A DNA stretch of 64,000 nucleotides from an uncultured Gammaproteobacteria bacterium (GTDB lineage Bacteria > Patescibacteriota > Patescibacteriia > UBA1558 > S5-K13): assembly GCA_964640635.1 (NCBI GenBank), contig CAZXFD010000002.1, forward strand, positions 26,153-90,152. The letters run 5' to 3'. Position numbers and translations under genes: made by a program. Under the pieces are notes generated by a model, which saw nothing but the letters and a program-made list of their open reading frames with translations, did not search any database and had not been told where the DNA came from. Positions 8,579-61,800 of this stretch are shown piece after piece (position 1 is the stretch's first letter; each line of letters begins with the position of its first letter).

Positions 8579-9699
8579 AAATTACTTTCTAATTTTTTAT
8601 AAATACCTTCCCACAAAAAACTATTTACTATTCTTTTATATGCATTTTCTCCTAATTCATTTCTAAATATAGGGTCATTCAATAAATACAAAATAGCATT
8701 CATTGCCTCTTCTTGATTATTTTCATCTATCAAAATCCCTGTCTTTCCATCTACAACAGCTTCAGCTCCTCCGCCAACCCTTGAAGCAATGCATGCTTTT
8801 TTAAATATACCAGCTTCAAGGTACACTATTCCAAAACCCTCTACATCTTCTTTACTTGTGCGACTTATCATTGCAAAAATATCTGATATAGCATAAAAAT
8901 ATGGAAGGTCTTCATCAACGACATTATCTAAAAATAAAATATTCTTTTCTAAATTTAAATCTTTTGCTTTTTGTTGCAAATATTGTAAATTTTCTCCACA
9001 CCCTATTATTAAATAAACCAAATCTTCTATATCTTTGTGGCGTCTTATCAAATTAATTGCATCAATAATAAGTTCATGATTTTTTCTTTTTACAACTCTG
9101 CCTACAGATAAGATGATTTTTTTATTTTTCAAATTATATTTATTTATAAGATTTTCTTTTTTGATTTCATCAATACGAAAAAAATCTTGACTAATACCTG
9201 GATAAAGTAATACTATTTTTTTAATTCGACCGGATAACTGGGTGAATCTATTCACCAATTCTAATGTTGTTTGACTATTTACAGTAATAAACTCTGCGTT
9301 TTGTAAAATTATTTTTGTAAGCACTTTTTTTCTACTACTGCTAGATGCTAACTTTATATCTAATCCATGAAGTGATACAAAATATGGAACTCTAAAAAAT
9401 ATTTTTAGTAAAAATGCACAAAAACCCAGTGGCAAAATATTGCCCACCCAAACTATTTCTATTTTTTCTTTTTTTGCTGTTTTTATAAGCTCAAAAAAAG
9501 ATTTAAGCCATTTTGGCCAAATAAATCTATATAATAGTTTTTTATATATAATCTTAAAACCTACCCCTCCACTTGGTTTTATATTAGACAAAACAACTAT
9601 TTTGTCTTTTGGGAACAACCTTGCTAGATTATAATAATAATTGCTTACTCCGCCTATATTTGGCCAGAAATCTAGGCTAATGAGAAGAGTTTTCTTCAT
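8575..9699 (-). CDS. Glycosyltransferase family 4
   Basis: EGFGIVYLEA (EX7E motif), GKTGIL, and an N-terminal DFWPNIGGVS like the GT4 N-domain. Confidence 0.8.
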   Translation of the reverse strand: MKKTLLISLDFWPNIGGVSNYYYNLARLFPKDKIVVLSNIKPSGGVGFKIIYKKLLYRFIWPKWLKSFFELIKTAKKEKIEIVWVGNILPLGFCAFLLKIFFRVPYFVSLHGLDIKLASSSSRKKVLTKIILQNAEFITVNSQTTLELVNRFTQLSGRIKKIVLLYPGISQDFFRIDEIKKENLINKYNLKNKKIILSVGRVVKRKNHELIIDAINLIRRHKDIEDLVYLIIGCGENLQYLQQKAKDLNLEKNILFLDNVVDEDLPYFYAISDIFAMISRTSKEDVEGFGIVYLEAGIFKKACIASRVGGGAEAVVDGKTGILIDENNQEEAMNAILYLLNDPIFRNELGENAYKRIVNSFLWEGIYKKLESNL

Positions 9700-9762: not shown

Positions 9763-9791
9763 TTGACAAATTATTTTTTTATTGTTAATAT
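9763..9791 (+). promoter_or_regulatory. Sigma70-like promoter (TTGACA, 17 nt, TAATAT) driving a non-coding transcript
   Basis: -35 at 9763-9768 and -10 at 9786-9791. No ORF with an RBS lies downstream before the terminator at 9999-10030. Confidence 0.4.
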
Positions 9792-9797
9792 GCATAT

Positions 9798-10030
9798 TAA
9801 TTAAGGTTCTTCCTCCTCCTTATTCTTAATTAGAGCCTAAATTAAAACAGGTCTTAGAACAAAAGGCCCAAAAGGCTGGGTATTGTCTATGACCGAGAGA
9901 AGCAACCAAGCTAAAATTTGCTGATATTGCGTTATTTTAATGCGATTAAAGCAATTTATGCTCAACCTCCTCCTTACTGCTTCGGCAACTTCTCGCGTGG
10001 GGTTCTAAATTAGAACCCCATTTTTTATTT
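9798..10030 (+). ncRNA. Candidate ~230-nt small RNA, promoter-to-terminator, with two CCUCCUCC(UU) anti-Shine-Dalgarno-like motifs
   Basis: The GC content is above the local background. There is no ORF longer than 22 codons and no RBS. CCUCCUCC occurs at 9812-9820 and 9967-9975. The transcript ends in a strong intrinsic terminator. Confidence 0.3.
9999..10030 (+). terminator. Strong intrinsic terminator (GGGGTTCTA-aat-TAGAACCCC then ATTTTTTATTT)
   Basis: Perfect 9-bp stem, 3-nt loop and a T-run. Confidence 0.7.
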
Positions 10031-10068: not shown

Positions 10069-10077
10069 TGATATAAT
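10069..10077 (+). promoter_or_regulatory. Extended -10 promoter element TGATATAAT only 6 nt upstream of the ATG (leaderless or near-leaderless mRNA)
   Basis: TGnTATAAT at 10069-10077 with the ATG at 10084. There is no room for an SD. A ctcgcgcataaagcgagc hairpin lies at the -35 position. Confidence 0.35.
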
Positions 10078-10083
10078 ATATAT

Positions 10084-11103
10084 ATGCAAAAAGCTTTATT
10101 ATACAAGAAAATAAAAAGTGGCGCTGTCCAATGTAGATTGTGCAATCATTTTTGTAAAATAGAAAATGCTTGTCTTGGTTTTTGTTGTACAAGAAAAAAT
10201 ATAGATGGTGACTTATATGTTCTCAATTACAACAAATTAATAGCAAAAAATGTCGACCCTATTGAAAAAAAACCACTCTTTCATTACATGCCATCTTCTC
10301 TTACTTATTCAATAGCTTGTATGGGTTGTAATTTAGCATGTTCCAATTGTCAAAACTGGCAAATATCACAAATAAATAAAATTGAAAAGCTTGATGAAGA
10401 ATTTCCAGGGGAAAATATTGAACCGTGTGATATTATTAATCTTGCAAAAAAAGAAAATTGCCCAACAATAGCATACACTTACAGCGAACCAACCATTTTT
10501 TTAGAAACAGCACTACCCATAATGAAGCTTGCACATACCAGTGGCCTCAAAAATATATGGGTTTCAAATGGATTTATGAGTAAAGAATGTCTTGATCTTA
10601 TATGTCCATATTTAGATGCCATAAATATAGATCTCAAATTTTTTAGTGAAGCAAAATACAAAAAAATAACAAACGCATCTTTGAAGCCAATACTAGATAA
10701 TCTAAAATATTTAAAATCAAAAAAAATATTTATAGAAATAACAACACTTCTTATTCCTGGAGAGACAAATACAAACAAACAATTGGAAAAAATAGCAAAA
10801 TTCATATACACAAATATTGGAAAAAATACCCCTTGGCACATATCCGCCTTTTCTCCAGAAATATCATTCAAACTACTTTCTAAAAAATCTAGTTCCATGA
10901 AAGAATTAGAATCCGCTTACCAAATAGGAAAAAATGCCGGATTAGAATTTGTATATCTTGGAAATATAGCCTCTGATACAAGAGAAAATACATATTGTCC
11001 CGCATGTGGATTTTTAAATATAGAAAGACAAGGATACATTATAACACGAGATGACAATAGTGGGCTTTGTCAAAACTGTAAATATAATTTAAACATCATA
11101 TAA
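10084..11103 (+). CDS. AmmeMemoRadiSam-system radical SAM enzyme
   Basis: VQCRLCNHFCKI...GFC N-terminal Cys motif, DPIEKKPLFHYMP, and a GCNLACSNCQNWQIS radical-SAM CxxxCxxC cluster. Together these match the family signature closely. Confidence 0.8.
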   Translation: MQKALLYKKIKSGAVQCRLCNHFCKIENACLGFCCTRKNIDGDLYVLNYNKLIAKNVDPIEKKPLFHYMPSSLTYSIACMGCNLACSNCQNWQISQINKIEKLDEEFPGENIEPCDIINLAKKENCPTIAYTYSEPTIFLETALPIMKLAHTSGLKNIWVSNGFMSKECLDLICPYLDAINIDLKFFSEAKYKKITNASLKPILDNLKYLKSKKIFIEITTLLIPGETNTNKQLEKIAKFIYTNIGKNTPWHISAFSPEISFKLLSKKSSSMKELESAYQIGKNAGLEFVYLGNIASDTRENTYCPACGFLNIERQGYIITRDDNSGLCQNCKYNLNII

Positions 11104-12530
11104 TGAAAAAAACGTTTATAATATCAATAGCAATTTTATCTATTTTTTTTGTAAAAAGTGCAAACTCGCAATGGTTTGATCCAGACTTTAATCCAAACTA
11201 TATTATATCCGACTTTGAACTTACGGATTATTCTTCCATGAGTATAAATGACATAAGATATTTCTTAAATCAAAATAATGGAATCCTAAAAAAATACACT
11301 GTTAAAAATCCGTCAAATGGGAAAACTATTGATGCTGCTGAAGTAATTTATAATGCATCAAAAGCATACAAAATAAACCCAAAATATATACTAGTATTAC
11401 TACAAAAAGAACAAAGTCTCATAACAGATCCAAGCCCAACACAAAAACAACTCGACTGGGCAACTGGATATGCTGTCTGTGATTCTTGTCTTATGACAGA
11501 TAATGAAATACAAAAATACAAAGGATTTTATAATCAAGTTACAAACGCTGCAAAAAGAAATAGATTTTATATAGACAACAAAAATACTCCTTGGTTTTTC
11601 CAAGCACAAAGCTATTACTCAATAGACGGACAAAGTGTTTCTCCTATAAACCAAGCTACAGCAAGTTTATATAATTATACCCCACATATAAATGGTAATT
11701 ATAATTTTTGGAAAATATGGCAAAAATGGTTTGCAAAAAAATACCCAAACGGATCCATAATCAAGGAAAATGGATCTCAAACAATCTGGCTTATAGAAGA
11801 TGATAAAAAAAGACCCTTTACAACATGGACATCTTTTATAAGTAGATACAAAAAAAACGATGTAATCAATGCAAATCATAGCGATCTTGCACAATATCCA
11901 ATAGGAATATCAATAAATTTTGAAAATTATTCATATCTTAGAACGCCCGATAAAAAAATTTACATGCTCGATAATGACAAGCTTCGAGAATTTGAATCAA
12001 GTGAAGTAAGTCGTTACTTTGGGATAAATCCTGAGGAGTTAATAGACATAACCTGGGAAGATTTCTATTATTATAGTCTTGGTGATAAAATTACTATGAA
12101 AAGCACGTATCCTAGCGGAGCCGTTATAGAAAATAAAGATGACAAAAAATTATATTATGTTAAAAATGGTTATAAGCACGAAATACAAGACAAAAGAATA
12201 TTAGAAACAAACTTCTCAAATCAATTCAAGTTAATATTAAGTAAAGATGAGGTAAATAATCTAGAAAATGCAGAACCCATAAAATTCAAAGACGGAACAC
12301 TAATCAAATCAAATATGGGTAATATAGTATTTATGGTCTCTGAAGGAAAAATCAAACCCATTAAAAACGAAAATAGTTTCAATGGACTTGGATATAAATG
12401 GACAAATATAATATCAGTTAGTGATAATCTATTAAAACAATATGAAGTCGGAGAAACAATAGAAATAAAAATAGAAGAGATAAAACCAGAAGATTTACTT
12501 CCTGAGACTAAAACAGAAAAACCATTATGA
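11103..12530 (+). CDS. Secreted hypothetical protein (signal peptide; weak lytic-transglycosylase-like LLQKEQS motif)
   Basis: The MKKTFIISIAILSIFFVKSANS signal peptide. The ATG overlaps the upstream stop (TAATG) and the downstream ATGA overlap indicates translational coupling. No AMMECR1 RGCIG motif is present. Confidence 0.6.
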   Translation: MKKTFIISIAILSIFFVKSANSQWFDPDFNPNYIISDFELTDYSSMSINDIRYFLNQNNGILKKYTVKNPSNGKTIDAAEVIYNASKAYKINPKYILVLLQKEQSLITDPSPTQKQLDWATGYAVCDSCLMTDNEIQKYKGFYNQVTNAAKRNRFYIDNKNTPWFFQAQSYYSIDGQSVSPINQATASLYNYTPHINGNYNFWKIWQKWFAKKYPNGSIIKENGSQTIWLIEDDKKRPFTTWTSFISRYKKNDVINANHSDLAQYPIGISINFENYSYLRTPDKKIYMLDNDKLREFESSEVSRYFGINPEELIDITWEDFYYYSLGDKITMKSTYPSGAVIENKDDKKLYYVKNGYKHEIQDKRILETNFSNQFKLILSKDEVNNLENAEPIKFKDGTLIKSNMGNIVFMVSEGKIKPIKNENSFNGLGYKWTNIISVSDNLLKQYEVGETIEIKIEEIKPEDLLPETKTEKPL

Positions 12531-13336
12531 CAAAAATTAAAACAATATTAATACCACATAACCCACTTGTTATTTCAAAAATTGGAGGTAAGTATTCCGA
12601 CACATTGAAATCCTCTATGGATGCAATGAAAAAAATTAGACAATCCATATATGAATTCAAACCAAAAAAAATAATTATAATAACTCCCCCAATAAAAGAT
12701 TTACAAAAAATATCAATACACCAAAAAGAAAAATATCATATTAATCTTAAAGATTTTGGTGATTTATCTATGGAGTTTGAAGTAAGTGGAGATATGGATT
12801 ATTCCACAAGACTAAAATATTTCTTAAGAAAAAATAATTTTGATGTCAATATGTTCTCTGGTGAAAAAACATATTATCAAAGCTTTGTACCATTGTATTA
12901 CTTGAATCAATTTCATATATCCTCAAAAGGCTTTGAAAATGAACTCAAAAAAGATGAAACTCTCAAGTCTGAATTTATAATAATCCACAGTTCAAATGAC
13001 ACAATAGATTATCATCTAAAATTTGGCAATTTGCTTTATGAATTCTTAAGAGACACAAAAGACAATATTTTAATTATAGCTTGCGGTGATTTCGCAAAAA
13101 AATCAGCACACGAGGAAAATGAAGATCTACCCAAATTAAGCTACAAACTTATAGACCTCATAAAATCAAAAAGCTTTGATGAAATCCTAAACATGAAAGA
13201 AGAATTAAAAAATGGCTATCCGTGGATAAAACCATTTGCTTCTATACTTCATTTTATAAACAAAAGCAAACGAAAACCCGTTATTTTATCTCTAGACAAA
13301 GAATTTCAAGAAATGTATATAACTATAGAGTTTTAA
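12527..13336 (+). CDS. Memo-like (AmmeMemoRadiSam protein B-like) protein, apparently degenerate
   Basis: IPHNPLVISKIGG resembles the vPHAGyvYSG block, KKIIIITPP resembles vvilGPsH, and FIIIHSSNDTIDYH resembles vvSSDlSHy. Several presumed metal ligands are substituted. Confidence 0.45.
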   Translation: MTKIKTILIPHNPLVISKIGGKYSDTLKSSMDAMKKIRQSIYEFKPKKIIIITPPIKDLQKISIHQKEKYHINLKDFGDLSMEFEVSGDMDYSTRLKYFLRKNNFDVNMFSGEKTYYQSFVPLYYLNQFHISSKGFENELKKDETLKSEFIIIHSSNDTIDYHLKFGNLLYEFLRDTKDNILIIACGDFAKKSAHEENEDLPKLSYKLIDLIKSKSFDEILNMKEELKNGYPWIKPFASILHFINKSKRKPVILSLDKEFQEMYITIEF

Positions 13337-14186
13337 GTTTTTTTGAAGAAGGGCAATTAGGAGGAAAAACTTTTCCTCTATTTTTTTTGATATAATAAAG
13401 CCAGCTTTTTATATGCGCTCTTGTAAGCTTATTAAACAAAATTGAAAACAATACATTTGTTTTGTTTTTTGAAGCTTGTTGATGCAAATGAATAGCGCAA
13501 ACACCACCCAAATAATACACCGAATATCCAGATTCCCACATTCTTCTGCAAACATCTATATCCTCTAAATACAAAAATATTCCTTCATCAAAATAATTGA
13601 TGTTTTCATAATTCTTTTTTCTTGTCATATAGCATGATCCCATGACCCAATCCACTTCTTGAATAGACTCATGATTTACATCTCTCATCAAAAAATTATC
13701 TAACCATTTTTTGCCTACATTTGTTTTTGATAAAATAGTTCTTCTAAATAAAGGGTAAAAAATATTTGGAAATCTAAAACATGTTTCTTGAAGTGTAGAA
13801 TCTCCATTCGTAAGTCGCGGAGCAACAATCCCGACCTTATCATGATTTTTCAAAAAATTATACATATACTCAATAGTCTCTTTTGATATCCTAATATCTG
13901 GATTTAAAATCAAAATATACTCACCCTTGGCTTGTTTTATGGCTACATTATTACCAGCACCACAACCCTTATTTACTCCTGTTTGAATAAATTTCACCCC
14001 TTCAAACTCCTTCATTACGATGTCTATATTGTCATGGGAGTTATTATCTACAACAATAATTTCTACATCAAAATAAAAGCTATAAGTAACCAATTTTCTT
14101 AATTGATACTTTATCAGATTTGCTAACTTGTAATTTAATATTATGATTGACAACATATATTTAATGAAGAAGTACAAAGTTATCAA
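13323..14186 (-). CDS. Glycosyltransferase family 2
   Basis: VEIIVVDNNSHD, a GxGxGNN segment and a YLEDID (DxD-like) motif. The N-terminal extension is atypical, so the true start may be internal. It overlaps the convergent + strand gene by 14 nt. Confidence 0.75.
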   Translation of the reverse strand: MITLYFFIKYMLSIIILNYKLANLIKYQLRKLVTYSFYFDVEIIVVDNNSHDNIDIVMKEFEGVKFIQTGVNKGCGAGNNVAIKQAKGEYILILNPDIRISKETIEYMYNFLKNHDKVGIVAPRLTNGDSTLQETCFRFPNIFYPLFRRTILSKTNVGKKWLDNFLMRDVNHESIQEVDWVMGSCYMTRKKNYENINYFDEGIFLYLEDIDVCRRMWESGYSVYYLGGVCAIHLHQQASKNKTNVLFSILFNKLTRAHIKSWLYYIKKNRGKVFPPNCPSSKKLKTL

Positions 14187-16727: not shown

Positions 16728-19700
16728 TTATTTACTTCCCCTTATTATAACTTCATGCATTGTATCATTTCCCACCATATAGGTATTTGTCTCTTTTGCT
16801 TCAAACTTGACCCCTGTATCTTTACTTAGTTTTTCAAGTTGTTTCATAATTATCTGATATGATGTTTGCTCTCTAAATTGAGCAAATATAGGAATTATAT
16901 TATCTTTTTCAATATAATTTACCTTGTATGCTTCTACAAAAGCTAATATTAATGATCCTCCCGCTCTAGAATTTCCATCTGAAGCAAGATCTGATACATA
17001 TACAATATTTTCCGAATCCTTATCGTCTTTGTCCATTTTACCTTCATAAGCAAGAATATAGCCGTGCATTTTTTTGTCTTCTCCGGTATATTTAAAACTC
17101 ATCTCTGGTCTATTTTTTATCATATTATTAACATCTTTTGCAATGAGGGCATTTTCCATATTATGCAAATATTGAATCAATTTTTGATTATCTTTATATG
17201 CCTTTCCCTCAATATACGCAACCTTTATTGAATCTTGAAATGTAAGACTACTAATACCCCTTGGTAACTTCAATTCTAATCTTTTTAAATTTATTTTTTT
17301 CTTTTCTTGCATACCAGTAACTCTTGATAAAATAATCCCTTCTTTTTCCTCCTTAGATATATCTAACAACATTGATTCACCAAAATTTACATTATCACTA
17401 TAACCAACCGGAGCCTCTGGTACGGTTGTGTTTGCTATTCTATCAAGAGATATATTTGCATCAGTATACCCAAGACCTACTAATACCTTATTTTCATCTA
17501 AATTATATTTTTTTGCGAATCTTCTTATATATTCTTTAAAAAAATTAGCGTATAGAATTTTTAATACCTCTGTATTATTTCTTTGTGATTTAAAATTAGG
17601 TGCAACCTCTATATTATCGCATGTAATTATGCTCTGTTTATCTATTAAAACATCGTCGCTTACAATATCATGCATATGGGCCTCGAATTTATTTAGTTGG
17701 GCCACTACTTCTAATATATTTTTTTCTATATCAATATTTTTTGTAAGGACACTTTGAGCAATAGTTCTCCAATTTTTTTGTTTATTATTATCGCTAGATT
17801 CGGTCAATCTTTGAATAGTAAATAAAGAACATATGGGATTGAATGTGTATACATTACTTTTTCCGCTTCCAAATGGCATACAACAAGAAGTATCATTTCC
17901 AGCAACCACTCCATTAGGGTCTGATTTTAAATTTATTTTTGCACGATACTCTTCAATTATTCTATCATCTTCAAGTCCACTGTTCTGATTATATATTATA
18001 TTTAATATCTGATCCTTAATACTTTCTAATACCTGGGCTTTGTCTTCTTCTATTTTTCCAGACTGAAGATAAGGAACAATATTAATTTTGTTTTCTTTAA
18101 AAATCTTTTGTAGTTCAGAAAATAATTTATCCGGATTTTTTGCTTCCCCTAGCACACCCTCTCTTCTTTTTCCGATTGCTTTTAATATTAATTCGTTTAA
18201 TTCCAAGCTTCCGTATTTACCGCTAGATATCATTAATTTATAATCTATTTCTAAAGGTTCAAATACTTGTAAATTATCATAATCCCCCTCCACAAGAGCA
18301 TCTCTTAAATCATCCGAGGATAAATCTAGGTGTGAAATTACTATATAATTTGATGGCTTTTTTCTATCATGAACCTCTCTTGGTGTATGACTATCTGATA
18401 ACTGCAAAAATCTTCCTGAATTTTTCCAAAACTCCATCACTTTTTGCATTTCAATATTAGGATGAAACGCGAGTTTTTCAATATAATTATATAAATTTAT
18501 TTTTCCAATACTCTTCAACTCTTTTAGCTGATCCAATATTTCTTTTCTATTTAAAATTTGACATAAATCATTATATTTCCTAAGCATTTTCCAAGAAGAA
18601 AATACATCTCCAACGCTTCGTATTTCTTTTAGTAATTTATCTAGAGTTGGCAAACCGTATTCTTTTGCTTGAGACAATGTTTCTTCTAAATTGGAATTAA
18701 TATTGCGAGAAATGCTATTTAATACATGATATGAGCTACCAATTTCATAAACAGCTGTATCATCTTTTATTTGTTTTAATATATTATTATAAAATTCATT
18801 TGCAGATAATCCAGAAACATTGTATAAGTCTATTATTTTCAAAAAATTATGAAGAGCATCATGCTTAGAAATATTGGGCCTTTCAATATAATTGAACATT
18901 TTAGAATAACCAAATATCTTAGCCCCTGTTTCAAAAGGAATTAATATATTTTGTTCATCTATCCAGTTTTCATGTTTTCTTTTCAGTTTGTCAAATATAT
19001 ATTGACTTTTCACCTCACTTCCCATTGTTCTTATCTTATCTAAATCATCTTTAATGAAATAGAGCTCCGATGGTAATAAATTTAAATTCTTTGCATCATC
19101 AAATATGTAATCGCAATCTTTTGAAAAAAATCCATGTCCATTATCAATGCTCTTAAAATAAGATTTTTCAATGCAATAATCTAAATCACCCTTAGATAAA
19201 ACCACATTAAACTCTTCTTTAATTTTTGAGGCTTTATCTATATATAGCAACAAACACCTTATCATACCCTCTTTAGCAGCCTCAATGACAAGCTCTTCTG
19301 ATACATTAAATTTATCTTTTATTAAAATACCTGCATCAAAGTTTCCCTCAGAAAATCTATTTACCATTCCTTCTTTTGCATATTGTTGTATTTTTGAAGA
19401 TGCAATCATTTCATCGCTAATATTATATTTCTCTATTATACTTATTGCATTATAAATCATTCTCGAAGCTACGGAGATTTTCGATATCGCTTGAACTACA
19501 GCATCCAAAATAGTTTCTTCATTTAGATGAAACGTGTCTATTATTTCCTGTACAAAATCACGCCTTAAATCATTCGATAGAGCCCACGCAATTACTTCTT
19601 TTGCGGCATCCGAAACAATTTCTTCATTTACATGAAACCTATTAATTAGCTCTATAGTCTCCTTTATTCCCTTTGTCCGAAGTAAATCTATTACTATTGG

Positions 19701-22493
19701 TAACATTAATTTTTGCGTTTCTTCAGATTCTAATACTTGGGGAGAAACTTTAAATATATCTATAAAAATTAAGGGGTCTTTTGTTTGTGCATTTTTTAAG
19801 CAACATGATAATCCATTTTGGATAGCAGTCTGAAAGTCTTGAGATTCAAAAAATTCATTAGGAAAATTATATTCCCTTTGTATATCAATTGCAGTAAATA
19901 CATCTACTAGGTTACACATTGGGGACAAGAGCGTTATCATTTTTAATTTTATTACATCTTGCACTTCTTGAGACTGCAATATATCACTCGACAAATTAAA
20001 TTCTTTTTTTAATTTTACTAAATTGTGAGTATCTAAATATACTGATGTATTGAGTATTCTAGCCTTAATAGCAAATTGTATTTCTTGGGACTGTAGAATA
20101 TCATCTGACGCTGATAATATTTGTCTTATATGAATTGCTCTATCTATTCTATTATCCGAAAACTCTGCTATTATTGCCGATTTTATAGCATTTATAATTT
20201 CTTGAGACTGCAATACATCCTCTGATACATAAAATTCTTCTTTTATTCTTAATATACCGTTTATATTTTTACTCAATAAAAACTGTAACATACATATTTT
20301 TACAGCGTCCTGCATTTCTTGAGACTGCAATACATCCTCTGATACATAAAATTCCATTTTTATATTTATTGCTTCATCTATGTCTCCGACAGAAATTTGT
20401 CTTATAATTTGTTCTTTGGCGGCTTCTTGAATCTCAGAAAATTTACAAATTCTCTCTACAGATGGTTCACTTTCTACATTATCATTTATTAACTCTTCAT
20501 CAATAAGGCCCTCTGCTTCTACTATAATAGGATCATCTATTACTATAAATCGTTTCTTAATTTTTATTGCTTCATATACTTTTCCTGATGATAAATATTG
20601 TATTATTCCTATTTTTACCGCATCTTGCATTTCTTGAGATTGTAATATCTGAAAAGAGAGATGAAATTTATCTTGTATGTTTATTGCCTCGTATAAGCCT
20701 CCCGATGACAAAAGGTGAATTATTACTAATTTTACACAATCATCCATATCATCTTTTGAAATGCCCACTTTTTCTTGAAGTTCTCTGGCTCTATATAAAT
20801 CTCGATGAGGATATAAAAAGCTACGTATTATTTTTTTTGCAATATTTTGAAAAACTTCTTCTGATATTCTAAGTTTTTCTTTAATTTTTATTGCGCTATC
20901 TATAGAATTATTGTGCATAAGACGTGATATTGCATTTTCTCCAGCATACTGCACTTCCTTAGAAAATAATATTTCATCCGTAATTTGAAATTTTTCAAAA
21001 AACCCAATTACTGTATCTATATAATATGAAGCTTCATTTAATAATCCTATCAATCCAATTTTTACGGCATCCTGCACCTCTTTAGAAAGTATCACCTCGC
21101 TAGAAACTTGAAACTTATCTATAATTTTGATTGTTTCATGTGTAAACTTCTTCGTAAGAGAATTTATTAACCCTTTTTTTATTGCATCATCAATTCCATC
21201 TGTTATTTCTATGTCAGTAGATAATTTAAATACACTTCTTAGTCTAATAACTAAATCTGAATTATAACCACTAGATAAAATATTTATTACATTTTGTTTT
21301 GCAAGCGATTGAAGATCTTCAGATAATATAACCTCCTCTGATATTTGAAATTTTTCTATAATTTGAAGGACTGTATTTACATAATTTGTTGACTTTCCAA
21401 GTAGGCTAATTATTGTTTGTTTTGCTGAATCTTGAATTTCTTTAGACTTTATTACTTCGTCTGGGATTTGAAATCTATTTACAAATTCTACTGCATGATC
21501 GACGCCATATGCACTAGATAACTTATTTGCCATTCCTTTTCTTGCAGCATCTTGAATTTCTTTAGACTTTATTACTTCTTCTGAGATTGGAAATTTTGTT
21601 ATAATTTCTAAAGCTCGAACAATGTTAAAATTCCAATTAGATAAACACATCATTATTGCTTGTTTTGTATATTTTAATATAGAATCTTTAGAGATACTTA
21701 ATTTTTCTAACAACTTCTCCAGATCATCTAAATTACTATAATATAAAGCATTAGCCATACCCTTATCCGCTGCATCTCTGAGCTTTTTAGATGTTAATAT
21801 TTTTTCTGATACATCAAACTCTTCTATAAGTTCTAGAATTTTATTTGCATCAGCCCCTACTGATAACTCGCTTATAATTTTATTAACCACAGCCTTTTGA
21901 ATTTTCTCTAAATATGTATTTTCTTGTATATTAAATTTCTTTTTTAGCTCTATTACACCGTGAACATAGTCCCCTTTACCAGTTTCAAGTGAATCTATAA
22001 TAGATTTTTGCGTGGCCTTTTGCATACTTGACTGTTTTATAACATCTTCTGAAATATTAAATTCTTCTTTAATTTTTATTGCATTTTCTAAATCATTATT
22101 CGACAAACGATTTATTATTTCTTTACTAGCCATGCTCTGTATTTCTTGAGATTCCAATACCTCTGGCGATATATTAAATTTTTCTTTTATATTTAAAGCA
22201 CCCCATATATATCCTTCCGATAAACAGTTTATTATTCCCTTTTTTGCAGCATCCTGAACCATTGGGAAATTAATTAGAGTTTCAGAAAAATTATTTTTTT
22301 CTAATATATCTATGGCATTTTTGTTTTCTCCCCAATCTGATAATTTTGAGATCATTTCTTCTAAATCTTCTTTTTGTTCTTCTGACAAACTTAAATATTC
22401 ATCTAATTCATAGAGGCTTTTAGGCGTATCATCTTTTTCTAAGTTTTTTAATTCTATGTCCTCAATATTTATTTGTTGTGGCTTTTCTAACAT
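16728..22493 (-). CDS. Giant (1,921 aa) cytoplasmic tandem-repeat protein of unknown function; ~25-30 copies of a 39-40-aa helical repeat plus a ~700-aa non-repetitive C-terminal region
   Basis: Repeat consensus roughly F-[NQ]-[IV]-S-E-[ED]-V-[IL]-x-S-[KQ]-E-[IM]-Q-D-A-x-K-x-G-[MI]-[IA]-N-x-L-S. DNA repeats with periods of 117 and 120 bp occur, e.g. 20198-20237 vs 20315-20356. There is no signal peptide. The C-terminal tail has a GNAT-like Rx(x)GG segment, which is weak evidence. Confidence 0.8.
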   Translation of the reverse strand: MLEKPQQINIEDIELKNLEKDDTPKSLYELDEYLSLSEEQKEDLEEMISKLSDWGENKNAIDILEKNNFSETLINFPMVQDAAKKGIINCLSEGYIWGALNIKEKFNISPEVLESQEIQSMASKEIINRLSNNDLENAIKIKEEFNISEDVIKQSSMQKATQKSIIDSLETGKGDYVHGVIELKKKFNIQENTYLEKIQKAVVNKIISELSVGADANKILELIEEFDVSEKILTSKKLRDAADKGMANALYYSNLDDLEKLLEKLSISKDSILKYTKQAIMMCLSNWNFNIVRALEIITKFPISEEVIKSKEIQDAARKGMANKLSSAYGVDHAVEFVNRFQIPDEVIKSKEIQDSAKQTIISLLGKSTNYVNTVLQIIEKFQISEEVILSEDLQSLAKQNVINILSSGYNSDLVIRLRSVFKLSTDIEITDGIDDAIKKGLINSLTKKFTHETIKIIDKFQVSSEVILSKEVQDAVKIGLIGLLNEASYYIDTVIGFFEKFQITDEILFSKEVQYAGENAISRLMHNNSIDSAIKIKEKLRISEEVFQNIAKKIIRSFLYPHRDLYRARELQEKVGISKDDMDDCVKLVIIHLLSSGGLYEAINIQDKFHLSFQILQSQEMQDAVKIGIIQYLSSGKVYEAIKIKKRFIVIDDPIIVEAEGLIDEELINDNVESEPSVERICKFSEIQEAAKEQIIRQISVGDIDEAINIKMEFYVSEDVLQSQEMQDAVKICMLQFLLSKNINGILRIKEEFYVSEDVLQSQEIINAIKSAIIAEFSDNRIDRAIHIRQILSASDDILQSQEIQFAIKARILNTSVYLDTHNLVKLKKEFNLSSDILQSQEVQDVIKLKMITLLSPMCNLVDVFTAIDIQREYNFPNEFFESQDFQTAIQNGLSCCLKNAQTKDPLIFIDIFKVSPQVLESEETQKLMLPIVIDLLRTKGIKETIELINRFHVNEEIVSDAAKEVIAWALSNDLRRDFVQEIIDTFHLNEETILDAVVQAISKISVASRMIYNAISIIEKYNISDEMIASSKIQQYAKEGMVNRFSEGNFDAGILIKDKFNVSEELVIEAAKEGMIRCLLLYIDKASKIKEEFNVVLSKGDLDYCIEKSYFKSIDNGHGFFSKDCDYIFDDAKNLNLLPSELYFIKDDLDKIRTMGSEVKSQYIFDKLKRKHENWIDEQNILIPFETGAKIFGYSKMFNYIERPNISKHDALHNFLKIIDLYNVSGLSANEFYNNILKQIKDDTAVYEIGSSYHVLNSISRNINSNLEETLSQAKEYGLPTLDKLLKEIRSVGDVFSSWKMLRKYNDLCQILNRKEILDQLKELKSIGKINLYNYIEKLAFHPNIEMQKVMEFWKNSGRFLQLSDSHTPREVHDRKKPSNYIVISHLDLSSDDLRDALVEGDYDNLQVFEPLEIDYKLMISSGKYGSLELNELILKAIGKRREGVLGEAKNPDKLFSELQKIFKENKINIVPYLQSGKIEEDKAQVLESIKDQILNIIYNQNSGLEDDRIIEEYRAKINLKSDPNGVVAGNDTSCCMPFGSGKSNVYTFNPICSLFTIQRLTESSDNNKQKNWRTIAQSVLTKNIDIEKNILEVVAQLNKFEAHMHDIVSDDVLIDKQSIITCDNIEVAPNFKSQRNNTEVLKILYANFFKEYIRRFAKKYNLDENKVLVGLGYTDANISLDRIANTTVPEAPVGYSDNVNFGESMLLDISKEEKEGIILSRVTGMQEKKKINLKRLELKLPRGISSLTFQDSIKVAYIEGKAYKDNQKLIQYLHNMENALIAKDVNNMIKNRPEMSFKYTGEDKKMHGYILAYEGKMDKDDKDSENIVYVSDLASDGNSRAGGSLILAFVEAYKVNYIEKDNIIPIFAQFREQTSYQIIMKQLEKLSKDTGVKFEAKETNTYMVGNDTMHEVIIRGSK

Positions 22494-58800: not shown

Positions 58801-61800
58801 TTAGATGCATTTGTTGATCTATCACCAGAATATTGTCCGAAGAAGTTTGAATCAGCTGCATTTTCTGCACGAGCACCTGAATATTGCCCAAGAAAATTTG
58901 AGTTAGATACACTTGATGCACCAAAGCCAGCATCACTACCAACAAATAAATTTGTGCCGTCTGCTGATATATTTACTATTGTATTTCCTAGCAATATCTT
59001 TCCACTAGCTGAGGTTGCTACAAGATCTCCACTTGAGTTTGTTGAAAGAGTTGAATAATTTGAACTGTCATAACCTAATGTTAATTGTGTTGTTGAGGTT
59101 ACAATATGTAGTCCTGCATTTGGAGTAGTTGTTCCTATTCCTACATTTCCAGAATTATAATAAATACTATTTCCAAATGTTGTCCATTGAGACCCTGTAT
59201 ACTGAGAACCGTTTACGTATAAATCTTTTGCATTTACAATACCATTTACATCAAGTGTAAATGCTGGAGTAGTTGTTCCTATACCAATTCTTCCATTTAA
59301 TACATTTGCAAATAATAAACTTGTTCCAACTAAGAAATTTCCAGTAACTGTAGTAGATGATAATGTTGTTGTTGCAAGCGTACTTAATCCGGTAACTGTT
59401 AAATTAGAAATTGAGGTGCTAGCTAAAGTTGAGGTTCCAAATACATTTAAATTATTTCCCACTATCAAATTATTTGTTACATAACTATTTGTTGAAGTAA
59501 CGACACCAGTAATATTTAATCCACTATTTGAAAGCGTCAATAAATTTGCATTTCCAGATAAACCAATACTACTTCCTGATATTTGAATATTTCCCAATGT
59601 GCTTGTTGACACAACAGAAAGAGATCCTACTGTTTCAATATTTCCACTAATTGCAGAAATTGTTGCATTTGCTCCTATGATTAAGTCAGAGGACGCATAT
59701 AATTTTCCTGTTATATATGTATTAAGCCCCGATGGTGCAATTGTAAGATTTCCAGTACTGCTTACAGTAAACGAAGAATAATTTGATACATCATAGCTAA
59801 GTCTTAGTTGTTCTGTCGTACCACCAACATTAAGTCTTGCAAGGGGTGTTGCAACGTTTACACCAACATTTCCATTTGAATCAACTTTTATTCCTTCATT
59901 GCCACCATCACCAGAAAGCCAATAATTTCCAAGTCTAATATTTTGAGTTGCTATATGAGTTCCAAAATCATCACCAGTTGAAGTTGCAGTTCCACAATCT
60001 CCCGATTTTGCCAAAATATCTCCATCTGGACTAACATACAAACAACGATTTCCTAATCCTTCACCAGCAAGATCTGTTGTTCTAATAGTTCCAGCAACAT
60101 TTAATGCTTGAACCAATGAACTTGTTCCAATACCAACCTTATGATTTACTGAATCAACATAAAGCGTATTATTATCAACTACAAATAACGTCCTCGTTAT
60201 AGTAGCATTTCCACCTATGTATGCTGAATTAGTTACAGACAATTGTGAAATTGTTGTACTAGCTAAATTTGTAAATCCTAATACTACAAAGTTGTTTGAT
60301 ATTGTTGAACTTGCAACTGTAAGTTCGTTTAAGTTTGTTGACCCTGAAATATTTAAACTTGTTCCCGAAATAGCTGCAAGATTTGATGTACTTGATACCG
60401 TAAGACTTGATAGTGCAAGTGTTGTTCCTGTTGCGCTTGTATAAGTTAATGATTGAAGTGTTGTATTTCCTTGAATTTGTAAATCACCAGAAGCAATAAT
60501 ATTTCCTGCTAAATTAATTGTTCCTGTTGCAACTATTCCACTAGTAACCGCTAATTGTCCGTTTACTGTTGTGCTTGCAAAAGTAGCAATTCCATTTAAT
60601 AGGATAGAATAATTATTTGCTAATATAGAATTATTACCAATTTCTAAATTATTATTAAATGTCGATACTCCATTAACTAATAAATTTGAAATTGTTGTAG
60701 ATGCCAATGTGCTTGTTCCATTTACCGTTAGGTTTCCAGAAATTGTTCCACCACCTAATCCTAAATACATTGAACTAGCTGTAGCTACTGTTAAGTAATC
60801 TGCATCATTTGTCCATTGTCTAATTGTTGATGTTGCAAAATTTGAAACTGATAAGCTTGTTGAGACGGCAGACCAATATGGATCTGATTCTGTATATGAT
60901 GTTAAGTATCCTGCGAGTGAATGGTCACCCCAACTATATGCATCGTCCCAAAAAGATGAAGATGCTGAAACTATATTATATGACTCATTCCATTGTAATG
61001 AATTACCACCTATTACTGATATAAGATTTGATACATACAGATTTGTCCCTGTTGCAGATGTGAAGTTTAGTGTTGTAAGTGTAGTAGATGATAATGTTGT
61101 AGTAGCTAAATTCGTAATTCCAAGTGAGGTAAGTGATGAAGTAACTGTTGCGGTTCCTGCAACTAATTCTGTTGATGTTGTATGCTCTGATTCTAAATTT
61201 GTAAATCTTCCGATTAATGCTGTGATGGTGTTTTCTATTGTTGCATTTACTGCTCGTAGTATAGAAGCAAATAAATTTGTTGAAGTTACGCTTATTCCTG
61301 ATGCATTTCTAAATGTTAAAGTATCTATATTTAAATTTGTTCCTGTTGCTGAATTGAATGTAAGGTTTGTAATTGATGTAGATGCAATTGTAATATTTCC
61401 TAAATTTAGACCTCCTGTGATTGCAAGATTGTTTAATGTTGTTGTGCCAAATACATTCAAGTTTCCTGATACAACTTGATCTCCTGTTGTTGTTGTATTA
61501 CCTGATACTATTAAACTTGAAATAGTTGTGCTAGCTAAATTTGTAACTCCTAATACTACAAAGTTGTTTGATATTGTTGAACTTGCAACTGTAAGTTCGT
61601 TTAAGTTTGTTGACCCTGAAATATTTAAACTTGTTCCCGAAATAGCTGCAAGATTTGATGTACTTGATACCGTAAGACTTGATAGTGCAAGTGTTGTTCC
61701 TGTTGCGCTTGTATAAGTTAATGATTGAAGTGTTGTATTTCCTTGAATTTGTAAATCACCAGAAGCAATAATATTTCCTGCTAAATTAATTGTTCCTGTT

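Follow-up and report, generated by a model that had tools for sequence, protein, structure and literature searches.

An AmmeMemoRadiSam-type operon of Patescibacteria with an embedded, predicted peptidoglycan hydrolase gene and a degenerate protein B

We describe a variant operon of the AmmeMemoRadiSam type in a 64,000-nucleotide stretch of Patescibacteria DNA (contig CAZXFD010000002.1, positions 26,153 to 90,152; the whole stretch is called the window below). Three translationally overlapping genes encode an intact radical S-adenosylmethionine (radical SAM) enzyme (g1), a predicted secreted peptidoglycan hydrolase (g2) and a catalytically degenerate relative of the Memo/LigB-like protein B of the system (g3), which is under strong purifying selection. 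Comparison with related genomes indicates that the hydrolase gene entered the operon in one large group of Patescibacteria, and that the branch to which the window belongs later lost both the gene for the third component, the AMMECR1 protein (protein A), from this locus and the active site of B.

Memo and AMMECR1 are conserved in all domains of life, from archaea to humans, and both are linked to human disease. We know of no reaction for either protein or for their prokaryotic radical SAM partner; to our knowledge, the parent system is a conserved gene set without a known function. The literature that we found on AmmeMemoRadiSam comprises incidental mentions, a paper on genomic context (PMC2034487) and a passing citation (PMC7159879), and our search returned no publication that treats both AMMECR1 and Patescibacteria. 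As far as we could determine, the embedded hydrolase and the degenerate branch of B have no published description.

The three proteins

The genes lie on the forward strand, in exactly the reading frames in which a preliminary description of this DNA had placed them, and its two stop/start overlaps, TAATG between g1 and g2 (11101-11105) and ATGA between g2 and g3 (12527-12530), were reproduced from the sequence. The glycosyltransferase cluster in which it had set them is also there: genes on the opposite strand bracket the operon, two glycosyltransferases of family GT1 upstream and two of family GT2 plus a Wzy_C gene downstream. The G+C content of the window is low (27-36%). PADLOC returned no defense-system match for any of the three genes, and the ratio of nonsynonymous to synonymous substitution rates (dN/dS) shows that purifying selection acts on all of them.

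The claim that the first gene encodes a canonical AmmeMemoRadiSam radical SAM enzyme is borne out. The g1 protein scores 297.6 bits against the corresponding model, TIGR04337 (cutoff 220), and 58.4 bits against the general radical SAM family PF04055 (cutoff 29.5); its second-best NCBIfam matches are glycyl-radical activases, all far under their own cutoffs. It has the CX3CX2C cluster motif, and further cysteine clusters at residues 17-24, 30-35, 305-309 and 329-332, so that the N- and C-terminal clusters are intact. Its dN/dS is 0.08-0.13 against L091 and L090 (L-numbers denote loci from related genomes). By these measures g1 is an intact enzyme and a full member of the family within the AmmeMemoRadiSam system (TIGR04337 for the radical SAM enzyme, TIGR04336 for B, TIGR04335 for A), the 'Memo-AMMECR1' systems of Aravind and co-workers.

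The product of g3 matches the LigB family (PF02900, 51 bits, cutoff 26.3), which puts it within the Memo/LigB superfamily, as had been proposed from its block order. It has no match to Memo (PF01875) or to TIGR04336, nor to any NCBIfam model at E<=1. Because intact orthologues do pass TIGR04336 (cutoff 26), with 34.4 bits in L020 and 31.6 bits in L007, whereas g3 fails it, g3 is best described at the sequence level as a diverged descendant of protein B and not as a model-level member. The full LigB fold is predicted, with confidence, to be intact. A single-sequence search of the PDB with g3 returned one hit, to Cas1, which is spurious.

Alignment of g3 with catalytically intact orthologues from other Patescibacteria reveals how much of the active site is gone. 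H11, H163 and D188 are retained; P55, Y117, K191, Y231 and P232 stand where the intact proteins have H54, H116, H175, E221 and C222; and a 15-residue insertion occupies positions 131-145. Of the three metal ligands (His, His, and Glu or Cys), together with the GDLSH-motif histidine of the active site, H11 alone is left. In LigB-type enzymes the third metal ligand is a glutamate, at the position of C244 in MEMO1. The MEMO1 ligands are H49, H81 and C244, and the H49A and C244S mutants bind no iron (PMC11081632). There is no equivalent of H81 or C244 in g3, which keeps only the first histidine of the MEMO1 metal site (7kq8). Under either the MEMO1 or the LigB mapping, therefore, two of the three metal ligands are missing from g3, and both neighboring histidines are gone as well.

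Despite this loss, g3 shows no sign of decay. All members of the window's clade have it at full length, at 45-96% identity, and its dN/dS of 0.04-0.07 is lower than the 0.09-0.11 of arginyl-tRNA synthetase in the same genomes, implying strong constraint. The earlier suggestion of a Memo-like pseudo-enzyme thus stands, with a LigB-family match, no metal site and conservation across the clade. The accompanying suggestion, that g3 had lost about 40 N-terminal residues, does not: the intact orthologues are 262-265 residues long and begin at the same place, and the short N-terminus is a trait of this LigB-type B subfamily relative to MEMO1. The sequences of the subfamily resemble TK2203 and class III dioxygenases more than they do MEMO1.

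For the middle gene, the preliminary description had noted a signal-type N-terminus and no resemblance to AMMECR1. Both observations hold. The N-terminus reads as n-, h- and c-regions (MKK / TFIISIAILSIFFV / KSANS), with a hydrophobic core of 14 residues and a best 12-residue hydropathy window of 3.0; a hydrophobic N-terminus is found in 84 of 90 g2 homologues and is absent from g1 and g3. It may be a cleaved signal or a membrane anchor, as the sequence fits both. AMMECR1 similarity was sought in g2 by profile searches and not found. Single-sequence and profile searches gave no meaningful match to Pfam, NCBIfam or PDB sequences, and neither PF01832 (Glucosaminidase) nor PF01464 (SLT) was matched in Pfam; these two families were also not among the 25 most-matched families listed for 60 g2 homologues at E<=1. 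A weak Arylesterase match (E 0.021, below the cutoff) and a match to PH0250 are chance matches.

A structural model changes the picture of g2 as a protein of no recognizable kind. The AlphaFold2 model built from 60 homologues, which is confident (predicted local distance difference test score, pLDDT, 91.2) consists of a hydrophobic N-terminal helix, a helical domain with a predicted lysozyme-like fold, and four similar beta-rich modules. Within the catalytic domain, all of 92 homologues share Q101 and E103 of the QKEQS motif, and D127 is 99% conserved. Beside the catalytic region lies a conserved motif, W119-A120-x-G122 followed by C126-D127-x-x-C129, the two cysteines of which are only about 80% conserved. 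The closest known proteins are N-acetylglucosaminidase autolysins of family GH73 with wall-binding repeats, namely LytB of S. pneumoniae (7pj3), Acp of C. perfringens (5wqw) and Atl of S. aureus (6fxo).

A role in peptidoglycan metabolism is further suggested by longer relatives: about 20 of 80 g2 homologues from other species are 725-850 residues long, and the three examined all end in a D-Ala-D-Ala carboxypeptidase domain (Peptidase_S11, up to 110 bits), one of them, in L079, additionally carrying PG_binding_1. Taken together, these features make g2 a probable exported peptidoglycan-cleaving enzyme of autolysin-like architecture, with an activity predicted from the model. The family is large, with at least 1,957 clusters at 90% identity, and its named sources are nearly always Patescibacteria. 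The long forms come from Magasanikbacteria-type genomes (L025:9935-12187, L030:9986-12316, L079:4687-7242 and about 17 other loci); a protein B gene still follows them, and the fusion of g2 to a carboxypeptidase would be a bifunctional wall-remodeling enzyme.

Gene order in related genomes

To place the operon in context we surveyed loci anchored on g2, each species being represented by a single genome. Homologues of g2 occur in at least 584 of these representatives, and the best 80 were examined. Of the 76 loci that could be evaluated, 72 have a LigB/Memo-like gene downstream of g2, and in 71 (93% of the 76) it is the very next gene. The other two components are found near g2 less often: in 13 of 48 loci the upstream flank includes a radical SAM gene of the TIGR04337 type, and in 5 of 61 an AMMECR1 gene is close by. 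Where AMMECR1 is nearby, B is canonical (10/10 loci).

The reciprocal test, anchored on canonical B in metagenome loci, gave the same association. Where the identity of B to the query reaches about 46% or more, g2 lies immediately upstream of it in every evaluable locus (26 of 26). Further out in the B subfamily, at 35-45% identity, g2 is missing, and the genes occur in the order radical SAM-B-A or B-A-radical SAM, or as B::A fusion proteins of 431-478 residues that adjoin the radical SAM gene. These are the 'ring-opening dioxygenase' fusions noted in 2007 (PMC2034487). In the examples L144, L150 and L163, where B is 35-45% identical to canonical Patescibacteria B, it is fused to A (LigB::AMMECR1), catalytically intact and has no hydrolase gene beside it, whereas in the window B stands alone, degenerate and paired with g2.

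Complete operons also exist within the Patescibacteria. L092, L164 and L020 have the order radical SAM-g2-B-A, which in L092 and L164 is compact and on one strand; L020 passes all three models of the system (TIGR04337, 322.9 bits, cutoff 220; TIGR04336, 34.4, cutoff 26; TIGR04335, 130.7, cutoff 99). The overlap between the radical SAM stop and the g2 start recurs in all three. The 475-residue protein therefore does not occupy the AMMECR1 position, as had been supposed. Because distant lineages have radical SAM-B-A or a B::A fusion without g2, and complete relatives have radical SAM-g2-B-A, g2 was inserted between the radical SAM and B genes in one large Patescibacteria group, where it coexists with AMMECR1 and does not replace it. 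The B subfamily of g3 likewise emerges from these sequences as a genuine component of the system.

Members of the window's clade (L001-L004, L010-L012, L090, L091) share both the trio and the glycosyltransferase genes on either side of it; the three genes overlap and their order is constant throughout, at 45-96% identity. The description of the locus as a variant AmmeMemoRadiSam-type operon, conserved as a unit in relatives, is thus upheld. Neither the 64-kb window nor the flanks of the clade relatives contain an AMMECR1 homologue detectable by tblastn and jackhmmer, and the slot for protein A downstream of B is empty at this locus. The likeness to AmmeMemoRadiSam lies in g1, in g3 as the positional and sequence orthologue of B, and in the relatives with all three components in one operon. 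It differs in having no protein A within 64 kb, in a B that fails its model and has no metal site, and in the gene for a predicted secreted hydrolase between the radical SAM gene and B. These comparisons indicate that the clade lost A from the locus, and the active site of B, after the insertion.

The wider neighborhood is less well conserved than the pair of g2 and B. Among 57 evaluable loci of the 80, PriA lies within 1 kb after B in 36 (63%) and ClpB directly upstream of g2 in 18 (32%), so that the ancestral region is a moderately conserved housekeeping block with g2-B as its tightest joint. In many genomes (L005, L009, L013, L016 and others) a ClpB gene of about 873 codons stands between the radical SAM gene and g2. 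Further along, this block includes PriA, def and fmt, while upstream of the radical SAM gene there is a LigT gene (2'-5' RNA ligase family) in divergent orientation; together these genes form a recurrent housekeeping and RNA-related context of the system. None of ClpB, PriA, def, fmt and LigT is nearby in the window's clade, where all the other ancestral neighbors were replaced but the radical SAM gene, g2 and B were kept as a unit and came to lie directly side by side.

The active site of B has been lost more than once. On the g2 tree such losses fall in at least three to five separate lineages, and B adjoins g2 in each. Outside the window's clade, most of the metal and active-site residues are missing in L033, L034, L043, L059 and L062, in L052, in L072 and in L061, apparently through independent events; no radical SAM or AMMECR1 gene was found in the available flanks of these loci.

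Possible ties between the hydrolase and the AmmeMemoRadiSam genes

On balance we somewhat favor the interpretation that the locus is a reduced, lineage-specific form of the four-gene operon radical SAM-wall hydrolase-B-A, which is typical of a Patescibacteria group comprising Falkow-, Magasanik-, Uhr-, Kuenen- and Buchananbacteria and their relatives. The chemistry of g1 would be kept, g3 would be non-catalytic, and g2 would be an autolysin tied to the others by co-expression. One leaderless transcript would start at the ATG of g1 and end at the hairpin that begins at 13360. The g1 enzyme would perform 5'-deoxyadenosyl radical chemistry on the cytoplasmic substrate of the system. g3 would catalyze nothing and serve as a metal-free binding or scaffolding partner, in the manner of the inactive alpha subunit of 2-aminophenol 1,6-dioxygenase (7txy_A, 3vsg_A), which pairs with a catalytic LigB-fold beta subunit; unlike that subunit, g3 has no catalytic paralogue in the window. 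g2 would be exported and cut the glycan strands of peptidoglycan as a housekeeping autolysin, sharing no chemistry with g1 and g3, its place in the operon ensuring a supply of hydrolase from a growth-related transcription unit. Such a growth-linked super-operon is plausible because the ancestral neighbors ClpB, PriA, def and fmt are fairly syntenic housekeeping genes.

Several observations weigh against co-expression as the whole explanation. The link between g2 and B (93%) is tighter than those between B and PriA (63%) or ClpB and g2 (32%). That the radical SAM gene, g2 and B stayed together while their other neighbors were replaced suggests more than passive co-expression, and the persistence of B beside g2 despite decay of its active site in independent lineages hints at a non-catalytic role tied to g2. 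Moreover, if A and a catalytic B are truly absent genome-wide, the retention of an intact radical SAM enzyme implies a changed function.

Three biochemical alternatives would account for a closer tie, and we give them, taken jointly, a substantial but lesser share of the probability. They gain from the tightness of the g2-B link, which survives both rearrangement and the loss of catalysis in B; they suffer because the radical SAM gene is usually elsewhere and the system exists in many lineages without g2.

In the first, which we regard as unlikely, the AmmeMemoRadiSam components act on a precursor of the cell envelope. GT1, GT2 and Wzy_C proteins use polyprenyl-linked intermediates, and in the clade the trio sits between genes of exactly these families; Burroughs and co-workers reportedly linked the genomic contexts of the Memo superfamily to isoprenoid modification in 2019. 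The very tight conservation of the g2-B pair and the fusion of g2 to a DD-carboxypeptidase in many lineages would also fit. However, the glycosyltransferase setting is specific to the clade, being replaced elsewhere by ClpB, PriA, def and fmt, and, among the loci examined, canonical systems without g2 occur in many lineages with no envelope context.

A second alternative, less probable again, is that g2 itself is the substrate: the cytoplasmic radical SAM enzyme, with inactive B as a substrate-binding adaptor, would modify g2 before export, much as anaerobic sulfatase-maturating enzymes modify sulfatases before they enter the Sec pathway. The overlap of the radical SAM stop with the g2 start, here and in L092, L164 and L020, is consistent with this idea, as are the W119-A120-x-G122, C126-D127-x-x-C129 motif beside the catalytic region and the persistence of the trio as a unit in a new genomic context. 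But the radical SAM gene is away from g2 in most related genomes (near it in only the 13 of 48 loci), and because its family is widespread in organisms that have no g2, g2 cannot be the ancestral substrate. The incomplete conservation of the two cysteines also counts against it, and no known recognition motif was found.

The third is more doubtful than either: B would be a cytoplasmic handler of g2, a LigB-fold protein that binds the hydrolase as a chaperone or inhibitor before export. This would explain how the catalytic residues of B can be dispensable while its adjacency is not. The g2-B arrangement survives at least three independent losses of the active site, and g3 is under very strong purifying selection. 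Yet canonical B belongs with A and the radical SAM enzyme in lineages without g2, Sec substrates are exported unfolded, and we know of no precedent for a LigB or Memo protein as a chaperone or inhibitor of a hydrolase.

Finally, although the ancestral block is moderately syntenic overall and g3 has lost its catalytic residues, the notion that g2-B adjacency is a meaningless inherited order and g3 a decaying remnant is highly improbable and largely refuted by the selection analysis, in which g3 is constrained more tightly than arginyl-tRNA synthetase; its full length and predicted intact fold also speak against it.

The comparative pattern itself is clear and gives testable leads on an old question, but it does not imply a shared mechanism. 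In a large bacterial group, the gene for a predicted secreted peptidoglycan hydrolase almost always precedes a Memo/LigB-like gene, and does so inside the operon when the operon is complete. Repeated loss of the metal site in the Memo/LigB-like component, under strong constraint, argues for a non-catalytic role, and an intact radical SAM enzyme persists with neither AMMECR1 nearby nor a catalytic B. We think it rather unlikely that this group has recruited the components of the AmmeMemoRadiSam system for a task at the cell envelope; if it has, the pairing of hydrolase and B would be the first concrete clue to a substrate of the Memo/AMMECR1/radical SAM system. If instead the linkage is only regulatory, it would still provide a useful annotation, as at least 1,957 'hypothetical' Patescibacteria proteins would be probable autolysins, and it would still define a pseudo-enzyme branch of protein B.

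Transcription signals and other features of the window

The features of the locus are collected in Table 1.

Table 1. Coordinates of the operon, its protein features and its putative transcription signals (positions in the window)
Feature	Coordinates	Strand	Remarks
Extended -10 element TGATATAAT, separated from the g1 ATG by 6 nt	10069..10077	+	Read from sequence; putative function
g1, AmmeMemoRadiSam-type radical SAM enzyme, 339 aa	10084..11103	+	TIGR04337, PF04055
CX3CX2C radical SAM cluster motif (CNLACSNC, g1 residues 82-89)	10327..10350	+	
g2, 475 aa, predicted exported peptidoglycan hydrolase (lysozyme fold, four repeats at the C-terminus)	11103..12530	+	
g2 predicted Sec signal peptide or signal anchor, residues 1-22	11103..11168	+	Inferred cleavage site between KSANS and Q
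g2 lysozyme-like catalytic domain, about residues 28-212	11184..11738	+	QKEQS; E103 at 11409-11411, D127 at 11481-11483
g2 four tandem beta-rich repeats, about 60 aa each, about residues 215-455	11745..12467	+	Probably wall-binding modules
g3, 269 aa, LigB/Memo-fold orthologue of AmmeMemoRadiSam protein B, catalytically degenerate	12527..13336	+	
Terminator-like hairpin and T-run, starting 24 nt past the g3 stop, where the convergent GT2 gene has its 3' end	13360..13389	+	Consensus scan; putative function

The preliminary description had proposed a leaderless promoter for the operon. Promoter-like matches as a class are no commoner in the window than shuffling would predict (26, with 23.3 expected), so the argument rests on conserved spacing: L091, L001, L002 and L011 have a TATAAT box at the same 6-nt distance from the ATG in otherwise diverged surroundings, and in L090 the spacing is 10 nt. 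The box and its spacing bear the proposal out in part; that the g1 transcript is leaderless, or nearly so, is plausible. We saw no recognizable Shine-Dalgarno sequence on visual inspection of four starts, those of g1, g2, g3 and the reverse-strand gene at 9699; initiation led by Shine-Dalgarno sequences may play only a small part in this organism.

Further upstream is a second transcription signal, a near-consensus promoter on the forward strand at 9763-9791 (TTGACA, a 17-nt spacer and TAATAT preceded by an upstream TG). It is followed by about 234 nt of higher G+C content, in which a structured RNA can be drawn from 9797 to 10030 (-69.5 kcal/mol, z = -5.5 against shuffles), with a strong intrinsic terminator and T-run at 9997-10021. 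Two CCUCCUCCUUA motifs, similar to the anti-Shine-Dalgarno end of 16S rRNA, are left exposed in the fold. Rfam has no match in the window, the sole sub-threshold match in this upstream region being Trp_leader (18 bits against 41), which is just a hairpin. The structure is conserved in L091 and partly in L090, and it is absent upstream of the operon in L001, L002 and L011. We considered and rejected a riboswitch-type leader of the operon, given that the RNA has its own strong terminator, that a separate conserved -10 element follows it, and that three clade members do without it. The region 9763-10030 is instead a candidate new small RNA, separate from the operon.

Two other reading frames of the window are unusual, both on the reverse strand. 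The first, at 43896-63977, is a single frame of 6,693 codons over 20 kb. Inside it, stretches of at least 300 nt are directly repeated at 99% identity with a spacing of 1,272 nt (60246-60545 and 61518-61817), and its product resembles the giant repetitive proteins seen in small-genome bacteria. The second, at 16728-22493, encodes 1,921 residues with many helical repeats of about 38 residues and the recurring motif 'SEEVLQSQEIQDA', and has no Pfam or PADLOC match. It lies downstream of the Wzy_C gene, a position occupied in L090 and L091 by a GT2 gene and small genes.

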